Below, piece by piece: positions 4,159 through 33,909 of a DNA stretch of 33,909 nucleotides. Source of the DNA: a virus; the UHGV virus genome UHGV-1464012. One strand, written 5' to 3'. Made by a program: the position numbers and the translations under genes. Every line of letters begins with the position of its first letter. Within the stretch, counting starts at the first letter, position 1. The notes below the pieces were generated by a model that was not told the origin of the DNA, did not search any database, and worked only from the letters and a program-made list of their open reading frames with translations.

Positions 4159-4503
4159 CTATGACCATTTTTTATTTGGATTTCGTTGGTGAGCGTGATT
4201 AACAACTCTGTGCATTACATCCTCATATTTTTCATCTTCAATTTTTTCGACATCGCGAGGAAATGGTGTTGCTAATGCTTTGTCAACTTTGTCCATTGGG
4301 TCTTCATTAATCTTATATTCAGGACCATCATCTATAGCATTAAATCCAGGTGTTACACCGTTTTTTAATGCATATGCTATCCTTTTTTCCCATCTCGCTA
4401 TTCTCCTCCTGTCTCGAGATGTAAGACCTCTATCAGATACTTTTCTGTTTTGTCCGCGGTCAGGATTAACATAAATAGTCTTTTTCACCATAAGCATACT
4501 CAA
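4159..4503 (-). CDS. hypothetical protein (114 aa)
   Basis: ORF whose start overlaps the N stop by 4 nt; basic N-terminus, acidic C-terminus. Confidence 0.5.
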   Translation of the reverse strand: MSMLMVKKTIYVNPDRGQNRKVSDRGLTSRDRRRIARWEKRIAYALKNGVTPGFNAIDDGPEYKINEDPMDKVDKALATPFPRDVEKIEDEKYEDVMHRVVNHAHQRNPNKKWS

Positions 4504-4805
4504 TAAGCACCGTACGGTAGTTTACTGTACAATTTTATTTTTTGGACTGCATGTATTTTGTTTCCTAATGGGTTTGAATCTTTGTAATAAATACTTCTAT
4601 TTTTTCGAACGACTTCTTCTTTCTTCTTGCAGCAAAGGCTTCCTAGCGATGCTGCTTTGTCTGCTCTGACGCAACCAGAGAGCTTTAGCGCAATTTTTCG
4701 CGCCAGTGCTTCATTACTGCGTCGCTCGGCAATAAGTTCTGCTCTGCGAGCTTTGTAGCGGCTTTTTGCCGCACCTTTGGATTCTTTCCAGACAATGGTT
4801 ACCAT
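4500..4805 (-). CDS. N: N-like transcription antiterminator (phage-21-like arginine-rich motif)
   Basis: Internal start MVTIVWKESKGAAKSRYKARRAELIAERR is an N-terminal arginine-rich motif closely resembling the N protein of phage 21 as I recall it; AAGGAG about 6 nt upstream of this Met; positioned between the pL/OL region and the early-left genes. Confidence 0.7.
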   Translation of the reverse strand: MVTIVWKESKGAAKSRYKARRAELIAERRSNEALARKIALKLSGCVRADKAASLGSLCCKKKEEVVRKNRSIYYKDSNPLGNKIHAVQKIKLYSKLPYGAY

Positions 4806-25958: not shown

Positions 25959-27374
25959 ATGGCTGCTTGGCAACAGGGTATTAATTCTGGTGGTTTTCTG
26001 GCTGGCATCGGTACGCAAAATGAGAATGCGCCAAAGGCAAGCGACATTAACGCAACGCTTGGTCTGATCCGCGAAAACAATGAACTGGCTCGCTCAGGTA
26101 CAAATAACGTTGGTCTGACCGCGTTACGTGGTCTGGCTGGAGTTGCTGATATTTACAATCAGGAACAGCAACAGAAAGCGATTAGTGCGTTCAATAAGGT
26201 TCATGCTGATGCATGGGCTTCTGGTGATCCATCGGGACTATTTAAGTTTGCCCAGGAAAATCCAGCGTTTGTTGCACAGGCACAACAGGCGTTTTCAGGT
26301 CTTAATGATCAGCAACGCAACGATATGGGCGATTTAGCCATGAGAGCTAACGTCGCTCTTTCTCAGGGACCGGAAGCCTACAGTAAATTCATTACTGACA
26401 ACAAGGACAGGTTAAATCGCGTGGGGGCGAATGCTGACTGGATGATTCAGACAGGTATCCAGAATCCAGAGCAGCTATCACACATGCTGACTACTATGTC
26501 TCTCGGTGCGCTTGGACCAGAAAAGGCGTTTGCTGTTCAGGACAAGATGGCTGGTCGTGAAATTGACCGAGGCAGACTGGCAGAGACAATCCGCAGCAAT
26601 CAGGCTGGAGAAGCACTTCAGGCGAGAGGGCAAAACCTTTCCTATCAGTCAGCAATGACTGGGCACAATATCGCAGCACAACGCTTGGCTCTGGATCAGC
26701 AAGAGTTTGGGTTTAAGATGCAGCAAGCGCAGGAAAAGGCTCAGCAGTTGATTAGCGAAGCACCTAAGCTGTCAGTAAACATGGAAAAAGGCATCGAGAC
26801 GGCTGTAAACAATGCCACAGCATCATCAAACTCAGCCAATTCCATGAGTGCGCTTGCTCAACAGTTCAGAGCAGAAAAACCAACGACAGGTTTGTTCGGT
26901 AACGCACAGAACATGTTCGCAAAACTTACCGGAAGCGATACGACATTGCGTGATTTGCGCATTCGCCAAAATGCCCTTGTTAACAGTCAGGTTCTTAAAT
27001 TCCTACCTCCCGGCCCAGCAACGGATAAAGACGTTGAGATCGTTCGACAGGGTGCGCCAACTGACATGGATAACCCTGAGACGGTCGCAAGATGGCTTGA
27101 TGCAATGGCAAACCTTGAGCGACGAAACGCGCAGTTTAATGAGTTTAAAGCCGAGTGGATGAGCGCGAATGGCAACCCTGGACAATCGCGTAATGGCGGT
27201 CAGATATTGGGGTTGGATGTTAAAAAAGGTGAATCATTGGGGAGTGCCGTTAAGCGGTATATGTCATTGAATACTGACGCAGCGCCAGCACAAGATTCGA
27301 CACCTTCAGGAGAACCACGGAATCAGGTTGGATCATATACCTCAAAATCAGGCATTCAATTTACGGTGGAATGA
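25959..27374 (+). CDS. ejection (DNA transfer) protein, gp20-like
   Basis: 471 aa (P22 gp20 is about 470 aa) in the gp20 position. Confidence 0.75.
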
Positions 27375-29506
27375 TGAAAGTTACTGCAAACGGTAAGACA
27401 TTTACCTTTCCTGATGGTACGAGCACGGAAGATATTGGCACCGCCATTGATGAGTATTTTGCTGGTCAGGCTGTTCAGCAACAAACAGTTAATCAGGCCA
27501 ATAATGCACCAACACGGGAAGAACCATCATTGATGCAACAAGCTGGCGATTGGCTCACTGGTGGTCAAAGTGCAGGGCAAATTGCAGAACAGGCTGGTCG
27601 TGGTCTGGTAAACATACCATTTGACGTATTACAGGGCGGCGCAAGTCTGATTAATGCAATCAGTCAGGGGCTTGGTGGCCCCAAGGTTTTGGATGATGTT
27701 TATCGTCCAGTAGACAGACCGACAGACCCCTACGCGCAAGCCGGTGAAACAATTGGTGGGTATCTCCTGCCAATTGGCACAGCGGCAAAAGCTGCTGGAG
27801 CGCCAGCAAAGCTCGCTGGAGATATCGGTTCCGCAGGAAACATGATTGCAGGTTCTCTTGCTGATGCTGCAAATCAGGAGGGCGACTTTGCACAAAATGC
27901 TGCCATTAACGGTGGTATCAATATTGGTGCTCAGGGGATACTTTCTGGGGCTGGAAGGATCTTAACCTCTAAATCACCTCAAGTTCTTGGTGGCGGGGCA
28001 ATAAATTCCGCTGCTGATGTTTCGAAAATGGCAAAGTCTGGTACAGGAAGAGAGATTATTGCCAGACAGTCAGCTAATGTGTCAGACGAAATAGCAAAAG
28101 CAGCAGATACTGCTGGAATAGATATCAACGCATTAACTCCTGGCATGAGATCAGGTAGTCGTGGTCTTGCTCAGGCGGAGGGGATTCTGGCGTCAAAGCC
28201 CGGAATTACACAGGATGCACACACCAAAGCATTCAGTGAAATAGAGTTGAAATTTAACTCAGCATTGGATGAGTTTGGGGCTGAAGCAGGAACTGCATCA
28301 GAAAAAAGTGCAGCCATAAAACAAAGGGTTTTGGCAAGTATTGATAAAATGAAAAATTCAGAAAAGGCCGCATGGGATAGCGTCCGCTCCACGATGCCTG
28401 ACGCAAAGGCCAGAATGTCAAACCTGAACGCTACAATTCAGGGTGATATTTTGGCTGGCATGCCGCTAACTCCTGAGATGAAACAATTCGCATCTGCTTA
28501 TGCTAAAACTGGTAAAAAAGGAATCACGTTTGATGCCATGAAGGCATGGCGAAGTAAACTTGCTGACGCAGAGCAGAAGTATATAAGGTCTGGTGAGGCA
28601 AATACGGCAAGGCGCATGGCTGAGCTTCGTGATGCAGCAACGGAAGATATGCGCATAATGGCTCAAAATGGCGGTTTTCTTGATGACTGGCAAAAAGCTA
28701 ATGATCTGTCAAAGGCAAGATTTACAGCACAAGAACAGGCTGAAGCAGCGTTTGGTAGAGACCTTGCAACTGATCAGTTGGTAACTAATGGTTCTAAGGC
28801 GTTACAGGGTTCAGCAAAAAGTGGAACAGGTCAGTTCCATAAAATAATAAGCGCCCTACCTGAGTCGGAACGCGCGCCAGCAATTGCATCAATATTACAA
28901 GATGCAATGTCGCAAGGGGTACGCGGAGGTAAGTCTGAAGAGGCTGGAATTAAGCATATCGCGACTATTCTTACCCCACAAAACGTGAAGGCAATTAGTC
29001 GATATTCTCCAGAACTTGGCAGGATTACAAGTTCATACGGAGAACTTGCACGAGCAGCAACAAAGCCACTTCGATATGTTGAACAGACAGGGCGATCTAT
29101 GCCAGCCATTAGCACTCTTGAGAATGGCCTTCATCCAGTTTTAGAGAGCGCATTGTCTGGCGCTTTTAGAACTACTGGCACTATCGCAGGGTTCTCTGGA
29201 GGAGGCGTTATTGGAGCAATAGCGGGTGGCGCTGCAGGTGGGGCAATTGATGCAATGGCAAAAGGAGCGATAGCGAAATTATCCGCAACTAGAAGCGGTC
29301 GTTACGCTATTGAAAAGGCTGTTCAAGAGGCAACAAAGGCAGTTAAGGTTGGGGCAAGTGATGGCGCATTAGCGGCGGCGGAACGCAGATTTATGGCAAA
29401 TAAGGCCGCCGTAAAAGCAATACGCGAGGCACTAGGAAACGAAGAGTTCCAGCGTTTAGCAAGAGCTGGAATTGTGGCATCGCTAAGCGGAATGGCACAG
29501 GAGTAA
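27371..29506 (+). CDS. ejection (DNA transfer) protein, gp16-like
   Basis: 711 aa, Gly/Ala-rich; last of the three ejection-protein genes. Confidence 0.75.
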
Positions 29507-29836
29507 TTAGTCATCCATGGATGGATTGAGCTTATCTCGTGTTGATGTGGCAATTTTCCCAACATTTTTCAACCAAGATTTTAAGAAGGATATGTCGTCC
29601 TTAATATCATGAATATCCTCATTCTTTATACGATCAACCTTATCCTCTAAGCTCTCTATAGAACGCTCAATGCTAGACAGAGAGATTTTTAAGTCCCCTT
29701 GCTCACGTTCCAGTGAGGATTTGAGAGCACAATATTCGTTTTCTAGAATTCCTATTTTTTTTGTTAGAGAGTGCATTCGATACTCATACACCAAACCAGA
29801 AACGACTAATGCAGCCAACAGAAACCATTCAAGCAC
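29507..29836 (-). CDS. membrane-anchored coiled-coil protein (moron; candidate superinfection-exclusion or abortive-infection factor)
   Basis: N-terminal hydrophobic helix (LEWFLLAALVVSGLV) then charged heptad-like sequence; GTG start with a strong AAGGAGG 5 nt upstream; AT-rich; convergent with the gp16-like gene. Confidence 0.6.
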   Translation of the reverse strand: MLEWFLLAALVVSGLVYEYRMHSLTKKIGILENEYCALKSSLEREQGDLKISLSSIERSIESLEDKVDRIKNEDIHDIKDDISFLKSWLKNVGKIATSTRDKLNPSMDD

Positions 29837-30204
29837 ACCAACCTCCTTAGTTTTGAGCAGGATACCAGATGATACTTTATTGGTGGAGTGGTGTGTGAAA
29901 ACGTGTCAACGACAAACCATCCACAACTTGGACGAATGATTTAGCAAAAAGTGCTATTTTTGGTGTTTGGTGTCATAGAAAAGTGAATAGCTCACTTTTC
30001 AACATTGCATGAAACTTGCAGGAAATGTGACATTACCTTATAGGTAACTTCGGCGAAAATGCAGTAAATGTGAAACGTAATGGTTTAAACATGTCGCTAA
30101 AGTGGTTGTAAGTTAGCCTCCGAAGGATTGCTGATAGCTTTGTTATAGTATTAAATGACATTTGACATAGTTGGATACTTAGCTGTGGCTATCAAGATGG
30201 AGGT

Positions 30205-30654
30205 GTGTTCATGCTTACTTGTTTTGATGTCGCCGACTACTTCCTGTCGCGGTGTGACGAGGATAGCGGTGACACAATCTCTAATTTAAAATTACAAAAG
30301 CTTGTTTATTATGCTCAGGGTTTTTCATTGGCGTTGCTTGGCGAGCCTCTTTTTCAGAATAAGATGGAAGCTTGGATGCATGGCCCTGTTGTCCCTGAGC
30401 TTTATCGCCGTTATAAACAATATGGTAATGGCGCTATCCCTTCTCCAGAGTCTTTTGATGCTGAAAAATTCAGCGAAGAACAGTTAGAGCTATTAGAAGA
30501 AGTCTGGGATGTTTTTGGGCAATTTTCTGCCTGGAAACTGAGGAACATGACACACGAAGAGTCACCATGGAGATCAAACTATATTGAGGGTGTTGGTGGT
30601 TCTGAAATTAGCTCTAAGGAGATGGCAGAGTACTTTGCAACTCGGATTAACTAA
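30205..30654 (+). CDS. Panacea-domain (DUF4065, SocA/GepA-like) putative antitoxin
   Basis: 149 aa; NLKLQKLVYYAQGFSLALLGEPLF...EAWMHGPVVPELY matches the DUF4065/Panacea signature as I recall it; GGAGG upstream of the GTG start. Confidence 0.7.
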   Translation: MFMLTCFDVADYFLSRCDEDSGDTISNLKLQKLVYYAQGFSLALLGEPLFQNKMEAWMHGPVVPELYRRYKQYGNGAIPSPESFDAEKFSEEQLELLEEVWDVFGQFSAWKLRNMTHEESPWRSNYIEGVGGSEISSKEMAEYFATRIN

Positions 30655-30658
30655 CGAG

Positions 30659-31078
30659 ATGGCAAGAAAATCTAAAAGGATTATCCCCCCTGCTGAATCT
30701 ACAGGTAAGTTAAAGTTAGGGCCGCAGTCAGGGGGGAATTCAGATCAAAAGAAACCGAAATTTTCATTCTGTTACATCCAAAGCTCTCACTGCATAACGA
30801 AATGCCAAAAAGATGAGAAAGCTGGCTTAGCTGATAAATTATACAGATTAAGTCAACTAACATGGGCAGAGATTAAGCAGCAAGGTAGGCATAAGCTTGG
30901 ATTTGAGAAGATTGCAAGGGGTGCAATTAAAGCTGGTATCCCCGGTCATATAACGGAAGACGTAGATCATTTCTTGGCTTTTAGATTTGATGATTTGAAA
31001 GCCATGGTTGGTTATCGTCTTGGATCGACATTTTTTGTTATATGGCTTGATAGAGAGTTCAACCTATACAAGCACTAA
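30659..31078 (+). CDS. putative toxin partner of the Panacea-domain protein (unknown family)
   Basis: Start 4 nt after the upstream stop (the track ORF begins earlier, at 30584); Lys-rich N-terminus; the C-terminus (MVGYRLGSTFFVIWLDREFNLYKH) loosely resembles RelE/ParE-type toxin ends; AT-rich. Confidence 0.5.
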   Translation: MARKSKRIIPPAESTGKLKLGPQSGGNSDQKKPKFSFCYIQSSHCITKCQKDEKAGLADKLYRLSQLTWAEIKQQGRHKLGFEKIARGAIKAGIPGHITEDVDHFLAFRFDDLKAMVGYRLGSTFFVIWLDREFNLYKH

Positions 31079-31080
31079 TA

Positions 31081-31107
31081 AAACCCACCGTCAGGTGGGT
31101 TTTTTAT
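31081..31107. terminator. bidirectional rho-independent terminator between the convergent toxin and ClpP-like genes
   Basis: AACCCACC-GTCA-GGTGGGTT stem flanked by an A-run upstream and a T-run downstream. Confidence 0.6.
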
Positions 31108-31130
31108 AAGGAGTAATCATGATTTACCCA

Positions 31131-31667
31131 TCAAACAACCCACCAGTTTGCCTGATTGGATGCCAGCCTTGCAGTTTTTATGGAATTAATTATGCCATGC
31201 TCAAGAGCCTTGTTAGCATCCAAAATGGTCGAGTCTGCTATCAGGGATGCCCACCTAATATGGGTTCCGATGTCGATATTGAACGTCTCAACGAAGCGAT
31301 CAAGATCGTTATCGAGGCATTTCCCGTACTCTCTCAATCTGGCATGGTCGGCGGCTGGGGAGGCAAAGCACCATAATAGAGGATGTAACAGGAATCTTGA
31401 TAATGGGTTTGCGAAACGTTCTGAGCCAGCCAGGAAAACGATATTAGCTATGGATTCAACATTGCTTATGTTGTGAGTTCTAACGGTAACAGGGAGTGAC
31501 TTAAGAAAGTTATACGCAGTAAAGCCAGCGGCAGTTTCCCCTCCCTGACTTGATATATGGATATTTAATTCAGTTGCGCCTTGAGATAATGCGGTGAGAC
31601 AGTGGTTCTGAAGTTGCCCAACAGTGGCAGTGTTAACGGGGCATAAGAAATGAATTGTGTGCAGCAT
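31131..31667 (-). CDS. ClpP-fold serine peptidase-like protein (S14-like), co-transcribed with the mnt-like gene
   Basis: 178 aa; ISSQGGETAAG parallels the ClpP INSPGG motif; candidate Ser (VESIAN), His (LLHPL) and Asp positions; start overlaps the mnt-like stop (TAATG). Confidence 0.6.
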   Translation of the reverse strand: MLHTIHFLCPVNTATVGQLQNHCLTALSQGATELNIHISSQGGETAAGFTAYNFLKSLPVTVRTHNISNVESIANIVFLAGSERFANPLSRFLLHPLLWCFASPAADHARLREYGKCLDNDLDRFVETFNIDIGTHIRWASLIADSTILDANKALEHGIINSIKTARLASNQANWWVV

Positions 31668-31915
31668 TATTTTTCATCCTTAGCATACATGGTCTTTAGC
31701 GTCTCAAGTAGCGCCTCTTTGAATTTATCAGCTTCTTGGTTAGCGAATCCTTCAAGTGAGCGAGAGCCATCAAGATTATCAACATGTTTTTGAAGGATAA
31801 GCACGATCTCTGAGTTCATTGATCTGCCGTTTTTATCCGCTTCTTGCTGAATGCGTTTCTTTAAATAGTCTGGAATCCTAATCCCCAATGGACTGATATC
31901 TCTTGCACCTTTCAT
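31667..31915 (-). CDS. mnt: Mnt-like ribbon-helix-helix repressor
   Basis: Internal start MKGARDISPLGIRIP...EADKNGRSMNSEIVLILQ; the NGRSMNSE core matches P22 Mnt as I recall it; GGAGGAG precedes the start. Confidence 0.75.
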   Translation of the reverse strand: MKGARDISPLGIRIPDYLKKRIQQEADKNGRSMNSEIVLILQKHVDNLDGSRSLEGFANQEADKFKEALLETLKTMYAKDEK

Positions 31916-31940
31916 TTCTCCTCCTGCACGCTGTGCGTAG

Positions 31941-32010
31941 CTACACAGTGTAGGCAAAAAAATTTTGACTTTAAATAAACACGGTGTAGTATTTAGTTAT
32001 CACGGTGTAG
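31941..32010. promoter_or_regulatory. divergent mnt / arc-ant control region with three copies of CACRGTGTAG
   Basis: Perfect palindrome CTACAC-A-GTGTAG (31941-31953) plus two direct copies of CACGGTGTAG (31980-31989 and 32001-32010) spaced 21 bp, between the divergent RHH repressor genes. Confidence 0.5.
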
Positions 32011-32023
32011 CAAGCGAGGGGAA

Positions 32024-32164
32024 ATGAAAGTTAGAGACATCGCTCCATTAGGGATTCGTATCCCGCCAGAGATTAAAGAAAAATTGAAGGAAAAGGCTAA
32101 GGAGGAGGGCAGGTCTTTAAATTCAGAAATAGTGCAGCGTCTTATTCGCAGCCTAAAAAGTTGA
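32024..32164 (+). CDS. arc: Arc-like ribbon-helix-helix repressor (46 aa; absent from the ORF track)
   Basis: Hand translation gives MKVRDIAPLGIRIPPEIKEKLKEKAKEEGRSLNSEIVQRLIRSLKS; the EEGRSLNSEI core parallels P22 Arc; GAGG upstream; directly upstream of ant. Confidence 0.65.
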   Translation: MKVRDIAPLGIRIPPEIKEKLKEKAKEEGRSLNSEIVQRLIRSLKS

Positions 32165-32227
32165 AGCCCCAACTGCGGGAACAGTCAGGGCTTCGGTATC
32201 GTAAAACCACGCATAGGAATTAACGAC

Positions 32228-33151
32228 ATGACGAGTGTAGCAATTGCAGAACATACAATCAACGTTCCATTCCACGGAACAAATCTCTTTTTGGTCAGCA
32301 TTAACAATGAACCTTACGTTCCTATGAAACCCGTTGTAGAAGGCATGGGTATGGTTTGGGCTGCTCAATTTGTTAAATTAAAACAGAGATTTGTCAAAGG
32401 TATTTCGGAAATCGAAATACCTTCTGCTGGCGGTAAACAGTTAATGATATGCCTTGCCTTTCGTAAGTTTGCGGCTTGGCTTTCAAGCATTCAGCCAAAC
32501 AAAGTCCGCCCTGAAATCCGCGACAAGGTAATCCAGTATCAGGAAGAGTGTGACGATGTGCTCTACGAATACTGGACTAAAGGCCATGTAGTTAACCCGC
32601 GCAAAGCTAAAAAGGCATTGCCGGGGAAAATCACCACTGAACAGCAGGAAGCCATTAAACAACTCGTCATGAGTCGCGGTCAGTCTCTTCCAAAAGAAAA
32701 ACAGGCTAAGGCGATGATCACCATGTGGTCGTCACTGAAATCCCATTTTGGATGTTCGTACAAAGAGATCAGTGAGGAGCAGTTTACCGAAGCACTATCA
32801 CTTGCAGCTCGAGTTCCACTTGAAGGTGAGTTCATTGGCAAACAAGAGAAGAAAGCAAACGAGCTTTCTGCAAAAGAAGCAAACAGCCTTGTATGGTTAT
32901 GGGATTATGCCAACCGCTCACAGGCATTATTCCGCGAACTGTATCCGGCGCTAAAACAAATTCAATCGAACTATTCCGGCAGATGTCATGACTGCGGTTA
33001 TGAGTTCTCCCGTATTATCGATATGGCGAGAGATGTTTTAATCAACCATACACGAGATGTTGATATTAATGAGCCAGACGGACCAACGAATCTTTCCGCA
33101 TGGATGAGACTTAAGAATAAAGAATTACCTCCTTCAGTACATAACTACTGA
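32228..33151 (+). CDS. ant: antirepressor (Ant-like)
   Basis: 307 aa in the immI position downstream of the Arc-like gene and followed by a terminator. Confidence 0.75.
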   Translation: MTSVAIAEHTINVPFHGTNLFLVSINNEPYVPMKPVVEGMGMVWAAQFVKLKQRFVKGISEIEIPSAGGKQLMICLAFRKFAAWLSSIQPNKVRPEIRDKVIQYQEECDDVLYEYWTKGHVVNPRKAKKALPGKITTEQQEAIKQLVMSRGQSLPKEKQAKAMITMWSSLKSHFGCSYKEISEEQFTEALSLAARVPLEGEFIGKQEKKANELSAKEANSLVWLWDYANRSQALFRELYPALKQIQSNYSGRCHDCGYEFSRIIDMARDVLINHTRDVDINEPDGPTNLSAWMRLKNKELPPSVHNY

Positions 33152-33169
33152 CAGATAACCAACGCAACG

Positions 33170-33194
33170 ACCCAGCTTCGGCTGGGTTTTTTTA
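33170..33194 (+). terminator. rho-independent terminator after ant
   Basis: ACCCAGC-TTCG-GCTGGGT hairpin followed by 7 T. Confidence 0.6.
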
Positions 33195-33251
33195 TGCCCA
33201 AAATTCACCGTAGCCATGCTGCGGCGATTCCTTGTATCTGGAGCAAATTAA

Positions 33252-33909
33252 ATGACAGATATCACCGCAAATGTTGTGGTAAGCATGCCTTCGCAACTCT
33301 TCACTATGGCGCGTTCTTTTAAAGCTGTAGCCAATGGCAAAATTTATATCGGTAAAATTGACACTGACCCGGTAAATCCTGAAAACCAGATTCAGGCTTA
33401 TGTGGAGAACGAAGACGGCTCTCACGTTCCTGTTTCGCAACCAATCATCATTAACGCTGCTGGATATCCGGTATATAACGGACAGATTGCCAAGTTCGTA
33501 ACTGTGCAAGGTCACTCTATGGCTGTGTACGATGCATATGGTTCACAGCAGTTTTATTTTCCTAATGTGCTGAAGTATGATCCTGATCAGTTACGGCGGC
33601 AATTAGAAGACCCAGATGGAGCGAATAAATACCCAAAACTTCAGATAGCAAGATGGAGAGACAGTTATGATGTAAGAGGTTGGGGGGCTATTGGTGATGG
33701 TGTTCATGATGATACATCAGCTCTATCAGAATTACTTTCTGTTGCAACAGGTGGTGAAAAGATAGATGGGCGAGGGCTTACTTTTAAAGTATCAACTCTT
33801 CCAGATGTCAGTCGATTTAAAAATGCTCGTTTTTTATTTGAGAGAATACCGGGTCAGCCTCTTTTTTATGCTTCTGAAGATTTTATCCAGGGAGAGTTAT
33901 TTAAAATTA
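33252..33909 (+). CDS. tailspike protein, 5' part only (P22 gp9-like head-binding domain, then a divergent beta-helix domain; runs off the window)
   Basis: N-terminus [13 protein letters not shown]...[26 protein letters not shown]...[17 protein letters not shown]...NVLKYDPDQ resembles the P22 tailspike head-binding domain; later [15 protein letters not shown] is pectate-lyase-like; GGAG upstream. Confidence 0.85.

Follow-up and report, generated by a model that had tools for sequence, protein, structure and literature searches.

What is the role of the small gene that lies directly behind gene 16, an ejection-protein gene, in a P22-like phage whose relative P22 carries an exclusion gene in that very place? 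The question is raised by UHGV-1464012, a viral DNA of 33,909 nucleotides (the whole of which is here called the window) that represents a P22-like (Lederbergvirus) phage or prophage. A sequence-only reading of the window had drawn attention to an open reading frame (ORF) of 109 codons that starts at GTG with AAGGAGG five nucleotides upstream, converges on the ejection genes and takes the position occupied in P22 by sieA, and whose product was described as an N-terminal hydrophobic helix followed by a charged, heptad-like region. All of these points hold up in the analysis that follows. The gene is hkcB, and we propose, tentatively, that its product is a membrane-anchored factor acting at the cell envelope in exclusion or defence. 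Is the ORF a genuine gene and to which family does it belong? What would the protein look like? What does the locus have in common with that of sieA, and how far does this inform on function? These issues are considered in turn.

This ORF is not a new gene but the already catalogued hkcB, which is a moron of the P22-like phages. Together with its flank it shares 98.1% DNA identity with hkcB of coliphage HK620 and 100% with vB_EcoP-611R6, and the protein is 98-99% identical to those of the two phages. The family phrog_5962 (‘unknown function’) matches the ORF over its full length with E = 1.9e-61, residues 2-109 aligning with profile positions 2-109 of 109. Known since 2001, the HkcB family is listed as being of unknown function; the same is said in the epsilon34 genome paper of an hkcB homologue that is assigned there to the variable ‘ant moron’ (PMC2629481). 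The sequence-only reading missed the identity of a gene that had already been named, as HkcB of HK620.

The gene is protein-coding and under purifying selection. GTG is the start codon in 5/5 phage copies. The ratio of non-synonymous to synonymous substitution rates (dN/dS), calculated against epsilon34, CUS-3 and SEN22, is 0.22-0.25 over the whole gene and 0.13-0.16 when residues 69-109 are taken separately; over residues 22-68 the synonymous sites are saturated or nearly so in the comparison with this second type of HkcB. The earlier reading had named lack of conservation as a point that would tell against it; what we find are homologues at 47-99% identity with dN/dS of about 0.25. The G+C content of the ORF, 37.9% compared to 47.4% for the window, is typical of an acquired moron. 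The ORF had also been assigned to the most AT-rich part of its island, and it does sit at the low-G+C end of the island that runs from gene 16 to ant, although positions 4291-4620, elsewhere in the window, are lower at 35.2%. A Rfam scan of 28500-33909 identified no RNA family overlapping the ORF, the sole match being the sar RNA in the immI region.

The second type, 50% identical to the first, comprises CUS-3 hkcB, epsilon34 gp14 (gene 14) and SEN22_15. A search of 5.8 billion proteins gave 26 clusters, and among 1.84 billion representative proteins the profile found only 10 matches at E <= 0.001, indicating that the family is small. No relative was detected when GTDB representative genomes were scanned with the family alignment. 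Among complete E. coli genomes, 82 of 5426 contain a match covering at least 80% of the ORF, and a further 35 contain a short match of 80-90%, which is probably the second type. The matches in E. coli genomes are all chromosomal and all annotated ‘hypothetical protein’. Wherever the genomic context of a member could be read, it is that of a P22-like element. The most distant members, P0030 and P0032, retain the hydrophobic N-terminus, the helix and a W-[LVI]-x-NVG motif. In P0022 and P0023 (L251) the last 45 or so residues of HkcB are fused to an unrelated N-terminal half that is not hydrophobic. These two are seen on short metagenome contigs only, the P0022 gene running into the end of a 1.7-kb contig, and they may be recombinants or assembly chimeras.

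HkcB has a simple predicted architecture. The hydrophobic stretch, the only one in the protein, comprises residues 2-17 (LEWFLLAALVVSGLVY), with Kyte-Doolittle means of 2.16, 1.94 and 1.48 over 15, 17 and 19 residues, respectively; the last of these values is that of a short anchor. Aromatic residues, Trp4, Tyr17 and Tyr19, flank the stretch, and a hydrophobic N-terminus is retained by every family member despite divergence in sequence. There is no positive charge before the anchor, while Arg20, Lys26 and Lys27 follow it, and relatives show the same pattern. The positive-inside rule then suggests that the N-terminus is outside and the body of the protein cytoplasmic. From about residue 23 to residue 97 the chain is charged. 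Leu, Ile, Val, Met or Phe fill nine of approximately 15 a/d positions in residues 23-72, which 39 of 5000 shuffles did as well, and six of approximately eight in residues 73-97, where 48 of 5000 were as good. Judged by eye, the heptad register breaks near residues 45-49 and 70-75. An AlphaFold2 model based on a seven-sequence alignment consists of a single helix, residues 2-103, with a mean predicted local distance difference test score (pLDDT) of 85.8. The most conserved part of the protein is the C-terminal W-x-x-NVG...DKLNPSMDD motif, which is at the end nearest gene 16 and of which the W-x-x-NVG core is kept in P0030 and P0032.

Given the position of the gene, is HkcB a divergent SieA? Membership of that family can be rejected. 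SieA proteins are recognized by three or four transmembrane helices and the motif FxRYPxEAxxFNK (PMC10883804). HkcB lacks the motif and has one hydrophobic segment as opposed to three in SieA when the same window and threshold are applied to both. BLASTP of HkcB against P22 SieA produced no alignment at E <= 100, and phrog_7745, which P22 SieA matches at 9e-109, is not among the PHROG matches of the ORF. Searches of Pfam, NCBIfam and PADLOC returned only sub-threshold coiled-coil noise (FlaC, BicD, XhlA, SMC/Rad50 and DpdH); the sole match in PADLOC-DB 2.0, to the DpdH model, has E = 0.002 and no individual stretch of it passes. The family profile picked out only GCN4, keratin and designed coiled coils among PDB sequences, at E > 0.01, and Foldseek, with the AlphaFold2 model as query, found nothing similar in the PDB, which for a single helix is no surprise. 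The earlier reading had looked to homology with membrane proteins of abortive infection or superinfection exclusion as a check; there is no similarity to SieA and no convincing match in Pfam or PADLOC. Homology to two other anchor-plus-helix families that occur in the same slot was likewise rejected, the hhalign probabilities being 11% and 4%. The YebO-type family is absent among Pfam matches at E <= 0.1, this being a general scan with no direct comparison to HK97 gp15.

What hkcB and sieA do share is a place and a means of expression. Both lie directly after gene 16, between genes 16 and 9, in the same orientation. Regions upstream of the start codon were aligned for eleven loci. The leader TGGTATCCTGCnCAAAACTAAGGAGGTTGGTGTG is common to the window, P22 sieA, HK620, SEN22, epsilon34, Emek and phiv205-1, and hkcB and sieA use the same GTG. 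The parts of this module in the window are TGnTATCCT, a motif resembling an extended -10 element (29859-29867), the Shine-Dalgarno sequence AAGGAGG (29842-29848), the 5-nt spacer TTGGT and the GTG itself (29834-29836), which is the first start codon after the upstream stop. In HK620 some 100 nt before hkcB are a near match to the DNA that precedes P22 sieA, and it is within this region that the P22 record annotates the sieA promoter. A single copy of P22 sieA suffices for exclusion when preceded by no more than 85 bp of its upstream DNA (PMC10883804), so that working expression signals lie within that stretch. On sequence grounds TGnTATCCT may act as an extended -10 element, which would place the start of transcription near 29850-29853.

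The leader is not restricted to hkcB and sieA. The segment 29834-30250 of the window is 99.5-100% identical to Emek and phiv205-1, and the megablast matches concerned (H4-H6) begin exactly at the hkcB start codon. Downstream of the same GTG, Emek carries a 129-residue protein with a signal peptide, and phiv205-1 has, behind the same leader, a 62-residue ORF with two hydrophobic segments (phrog_21338; L010 3815-4003, minus strand). This 62-residue ORF also occurs in UPF_BP1 and JEP4 and is unannotated in 4/4 phage records that contain it. This ORF cannot readily be equated with ‘orf62’ of phage L; tblastn matches are confined to phiv205-1, UPF_BP1 and JEP4.

A search of IMG/VR for the exact 21-nt leader identified at least 119 viral contigs, and the ORFs starting at the leader GTG, in 118 contigs, belong to at least 13 small-protein families that are unrelated by BLAST. 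Among the matches listed, HkcB is behind the leader at 20 loci, the Emek type at 17, another 109-residue anchor-plus-helix protein at 14, the 62-residue type at 12, SieA at 11 and eight further families at 44 in all. A membrane or signal segment is present in twelve of the 13 listed families (in one case as judged by eye), and SieA alone has a known function. Conservation over the 92 distinct upstream sequences among these matches is 0.86 or higher from -31 to -21 and about 0.5 beyond -31, a collapse that defines the constant unit as 34 nt, from -31 to +3. We found no description of this arrangement of constant leader and variable cassette in the searchable literature; that the region as such is variable is well known. 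The alignment also informs on sieA. The start codon was called uncertain in the SieA paper (162 or 164 residues), and the GTG giving 164 residues (L003, P22, position 3831) is placed behind the leader and Shine-Dalgarno sequence of all 13 families, which favours the longer form.

A further property of hkcB is its link to gene 16. The two genes are convergent, with stop codons back to back (TAA/TTA, 29504-29509). The gap between them is 0 nt in the window, HK620, CUS-3, SEN22, epsilon34, L008 and two P0017 loci, 3-4 nt in L007 and L249, and within 0-4 nt at every locus examined. In addition, gp16 of the window carries a 45-residue C-terminal extension that is absent from P22, Emek and phiv205-1. 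The short, P22-type gp16 ends ...RPLLAxEATxQ and it is with this form that SieA is found, whereas HkcB occurs only with the long-tail form, in 8/8 cases in the gp16 alignment and at 37/37 viral loci with a readable gene 16. The neighbours of the distant members P0030 and P0032 are also long-tail gp16. Conversely, of 80 loci with a long-tail gp16, 52 have HkcB, 26 have other ORFs in the slot and two have none. Identity within the extension is 87-96% across those phages of E. coli, Salmonella and Klebsiella that were compared. Overall, gp16 of HK620 and of CUS-3 are only 26% identical (PMC10883804).

How might such a protein function? Our preferred reading, held tentatively and in the knowledge that it may well be wrong, is that HkcB is a prophage-expressed coiled-coil protein, anchored in the inner membrane, that serves as an exclusion or defence factor at the level of the envelope. 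In the lysogen hkcB would, as sieA does, have a promoter of its own and be transcribed in the antisense direction relative to the late operon. The N-terminal segment would anchor HkcB in the inner membrane with the N-terminus facing outward, and the coiled coil and conserved C-terminal motif would then lie on the cytoplasmic side, probably in oligomeric form. The most likely mode of action would be interference with the gp20/gp16 conduit through which incoming P22-like phages deliver their DNA, giving superinfection exclusion analogous to that by SieA but without homology. SieA works on gp16/gp20 at the inner membrane and has a conserved motif that is predicted to face the cytoplasm (PMC10883804); HK97 gp15, considered below, offers a second analogy (PMC3594210).

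The restriction of HkcB to long-tail gp16, taken with the report that the ejection proteins of HK620 partly escape both types of SieA (PMC10883804), allows the speculation that HkcB is an exclusion factor matched to that type of gp16. The ejection proteins of CUS-3 do not escape (PMC10883804). HK620 and CUS-3 both carry HkcB yet differ in this respect; sensitivity to SieA is therefore not determined by the tail of gp16 as such. The idea can be extended to the slot as a whole, which would be a plug-in site for defence in which the 34-nt module drives swappable envelope proteins, with HkcB a non-SieA exclusion protein whose cytoplasmic coiled coil and C-terminal motif would be directed at the conduit formed with long-tail gp16. 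We regard this full version as improbable.

Several observations weigh against an exclusion role. The hydrophobic segment is short, with the mean of 1.48 over 19 residues given above, and its role as an anchor is a prediction from hydropathy. The searches of Pfam, NCBIfam and PADLOC, the BLASTP comparison with SieA and the Foldseek search offer no functional relative, and the literature lists the function of hkcB as unknown (PMC2629481). A consensus scan of the minus strand upstream of hkcB found no sigma-70 promoter, and the upstream region of the window resembles that of P22 sieA only in the proximal 34 nt and in a -35-like TTGACA with a 12-nt insertion. One of the 13 listed cassette families is apparently soluble, and a common slot and leader do not prove a common function. 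Phage L has a small ORF between genes 16 and 9 but reportedly no known exclusion genes (PMC8022706). Finally, the spacing of 0 nt can on its own explain the linkage of HkcB to the gp16 tail, and in 26 of the 80 long-tail loci the slot is occupied by other ORFs; a functional relationship between HkcB and the tail is not needed.

Could HkcB be an envelope protein of lysogenic conversion with no part in phage defence, altering the physiology of the host envelope, stress tolerance or host interaction in the manner of lambda Lom and Bor? We consider this unlikely, though it deserves to be kept in view. Morons encode diverse functions of benefit to the host (PMC3594210), and the many unrelated envelope proteins of the slot, which include lipoproteins and periplasmic proteins, are perhaps not all directed against phage. 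A conversion protein would not, however, be expected to show the distribution of HkcB, with few relatives among 1.84 billion representatives, restriction to P22-like elements wherever context was read and a position always abutting an ejection gene. The expression module that hkcB has in common with sieA argues in the same direction.

An alternative, which we judge improbable, is that HkcB is an effector of abortive infection, harmless in the membrane at first, oligomerizing when infection of the cell is sensed and then depolarizing or permeabilizing the membrane so that the cell dies before phage are released. A small, helical moron protein with a single anchor and a coiled coil prone to oligomerize would suit such a role, and there is defence-like cargo nearby in the window. 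Divergent from hkcB is a gene for a SocA-like Panacea-domain protein with a partner ORF, a pair that looks like a toxin-antitoxin or defence cassette, and a ClpP-like gene lies beyond. The sequence-only reading had suggested that HkcB might work with this toxin-antitoxin-like pair. That suggestion is not supported by comparison of loci, as SocA is found within 2.5 kb at only 5/53 hkcB loci and also at two loci without hkcB. The pair is common to Emek, phiv205-1, E212 and EC.P3, being placed beside other slot genes in Emek and phiv205-1, and it is absent beside hkcB in HK620, CUS-3 and epsilon34. The upstream neighbour of hkcB varies, from hkcC in HK620 to two hypothetical genes and the mnt operon in CUS-3 and the SocA/Panacea cassette in the window. 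HkcB is independent of the genes that flank it, and no sensor partner travels with it. In PADLOC, too, no match includes a stretch that passes. One short anchor offers little from which to build a pore, and SieA, the only characterized occupant of the slot, blocks entry rather than killing the cell (PMC10883804).

The junction with gene 16 raises the matter of whether conservation of the C-terminal motif is mainly a property of DNA, either a homogenized mosaic joint or a cis element, with the protein having little function of its own. Comparison with the epsilon34, CUS-3 and SEN22 types reveals an island of nucleotide identity, 0.77-1.00 from -150 in gene 16 to +60 in hkcB compared to about 0.5 further out, that includes synonymous sites in the last 20 or so codons of hkcB and the last 50 or so of gene 16. 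L007 keeps 14/15 nt just after the stop codons even though they are read in another frame, and a 12-bp palindrome, CATCCATGGATG, is present within the island at 29512-29523. By our estimate, however, 34 kb of DNA would contain several such palindromes by chance, and no structured RNA beyond that of shuffled sequences was predicted at the junction on either strand (z = -1.16 and -0.33). The dN/dS of the whole gene, in which the synonymous sites of residues 22-68 are saturated or almost so, and the retention of anchor, heptads and W-x-x-NVG by distant members whose DNA has diverged, also argue for a functional protein, and this explanation appears quite improbable as an account of the gene. For the junction itself the simplest reading is physical linkage together with a joint homogenized by recombination. 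Least probable of all is that HkcB is an accessory to its own gp16, handling the long tail in the lytic cycle or during injection or protecting the lysogen from gp16, for although a long-tail gp16 is present at every HkcB locus examined, the island spans the ends of both genes and the most conserved part of HkcB adjoins gene 16, the gene is antisense to the late operon behind a sieA-type leader, 26 of 80 long-tail loci lack it, the tight linkage is predicted by the spacing alone, and P22 hybrids with genes 7, 20 and 16 of HK620 or CUS-3 but no hkcB produce functional phage in essentially normal numbers (PMC10883804).

The features of the window that bear on these arguments are collected in Table 1. 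The order after gene 16 is hkcB, the SocA/Panacea gene and its partner ORF, the ClpP-like gene behind an Arc/Mnt-like gene, arc, the sar RNA and ant. The match of the SocA partner to phrog_8366 begins at residue 26 of a 164-residue ORF, so the ATG at 30659 is the likelier start. The position of the sar RNA between arc and ant indicates an intact P22-type immI control circuit. The same ClpP-like gene is beside hkcB in L252 and is present in phiv205-1. In CUS-3, L007 and L008, hkcB is downstream of, and co-oriented with, mnt-like repressor genes; the P22 record annotates mnt as acting in the maintenance of lysogeny.

Table 1. Coordinates of hkcB, its predicted parts and the neighbouring features in UHGV-1464012
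Feature	Coordinates	Strand	Basis or remark
gene 20	25959-27374		ORF listing; precedes gene 16
gene 16, DNA-transfer/ejection protein, 711 aa	27371..29506	+	homology to HK620 gene 16; relatives with Pfam Phage_P22_gp16
45-aa C-terminal extension of gp16	29369..29503	+	gp16 C-terminal alignment
high-identity island (DNA level) centred on the stop-codon junction of gene 16 and hkcB	29356..29566	.	30-nt bins, alignment A4
hkcB coding sequence, 109 aa + stop	29507..29836	-	ORF listing; HkcB family, phrog_5962
family signature W-[LVI]-x-NVG-x-IATSTRDKLNPSMDD, codons 88-109	29510..29575	-	alignment A1
charged, heptad-patterned helix, coiled-coil-like, codons 22-97	29546..29773	-	a/d occupancy against shuffles; AlphaFold2
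predicted N-terminal hydrophobic membrane anchor, codons 2-19, LEWFLLAALVVSGLVYEY	29780..29833	-	hydropathy and flanking charges
constant 34-nt expression module TGGTATCCTGCTCAAAACTAAGGAGGTTGGTGTG	29834..29867	-	common to P22 sieA, HK620, SEN22, epsilon34, Emek, phiv205-1
intergenic region, divergent hkcB and SocA/Panacea gene	29837..30204	.	annotation
SocA-like Panacea-domain protein	30205-30654	+	Pfam E = 1.9e-24
SocA partner, 139 aa, phrog_8366	30659-31078	+	weak PADLOC match to NsnC, E = 1.4e-5
ClpP-like protease, 178 aa	31131-31667	-	Pfam CLP_protease E = 2.2e-11
Arc/Mnt-like ribbon-helix-helix gene	31667-31957	-	one-base overlap with the ClpP-like gene; in immI region
arc	32024-32164		
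sar antisense RNA	32159-32226	-	Rfam RF00262, 84.6 bits, E = 2e-17
ant	32228-33151		

Comparisons with characterized systems place HkcB in context. The protein of the window is like those of HK620, CUS-3, epsilon34 and SEN22 in length, architecture and position abutting gene 16; where the locus differs from HK620 and CUS-3 is in the upstream neighbour, a divergent SocA/Panacea cassette instead of hkcC or the mnt operon. To our knowledge SieA is the only exclusion protein of a short-tailed phage known to act at the inner membrane on a conduit of ejection proteins. The likeness of HkcB to P22 SieA (phrog_7745) extends to the slot, orientation, 34-nt leader, Shine-Dalgarno sequence and GTG, and to being a membrane protein of a prophage moron. 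The proteins themselves are different, SieA having 164 residues, three predicted membrane helices and the FxRYPxEAxxFNK motif, HkcB 109 residues, one short anchor, a coiled coil and another motif. Exclusion is demonstrated for SieA and is a candidate role for HkcB. SieA is carried by only about a third of P22-like phages (PMC10883804).

HK97 gp15, which is YebO-related, resembles the candidate in being a small inner-membrane exclusion protein from a prophage moron (PMC3594210). That moron lies inside an operon of virion genes, and gp15 blocks genome entry with a specificity that derives from the conduit-forming tail proteins of the incoming phage (PMC3594210, PMC10883804). Unlike HkcB, gp15 belongs to a long-tailed phage type, and probably also to a different family. 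Ltp of TP-J34 and Sie2009 of Tuc2009, both from phages of Gram-positive hosts, are small envelope proteins that stop DNA injection (PMC10883804). All are unrelated to HkcB in sequence, as are the T4 proteins considered below, and several of the group face outward, being lipoproteins or periplasmic, whereas most of HkcB is predicted to lie in the cytoplasm. Imm and Sp of phage T4 are small, envelope-located proteins that also stop the injection of DNA. The i-spanins of the lambda Rz type combine an N-terminal membrane anchor with a coiled-coil helix in a protein of similar size to HkcB. An Rz-like role was rejected, since hkcB is situated between gene 16 and the immI region, outside the lysis cassette. 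The ORF listing shows no minus-strand ORF with a lipoprotein signal overlapping or adjacent to hkcB, so there is no lipoprotein partner, the topology predicted from flanking charges is the opposite of that of an i-spanin, and no spanin family is among the matches of HkcB in Pfam or PHROGs.

Another moron gene at this site will be no surprise to the phage specialist, and hkcB itself was already catalogued. What is new here is the view of the slot behind gene 16 as a site with a constant leader and swappable cassettes for envelope proteins, and the exclusion hypothesis that follows is a sharp one. Should HkcB have no anti-phage effect then it is an ordinary uncharacterized moron gene. If HkcB and the dozen other leader-linked cassettes are indeed alternative exclusion factors, they would provide a panel of natural inhibitors with which to dissect the trans-envelope DNA channel formed by gp7, gp20 and gp16, and their existence could help to explain why genes 16 and 20 rank among the most variable of the virion genes.

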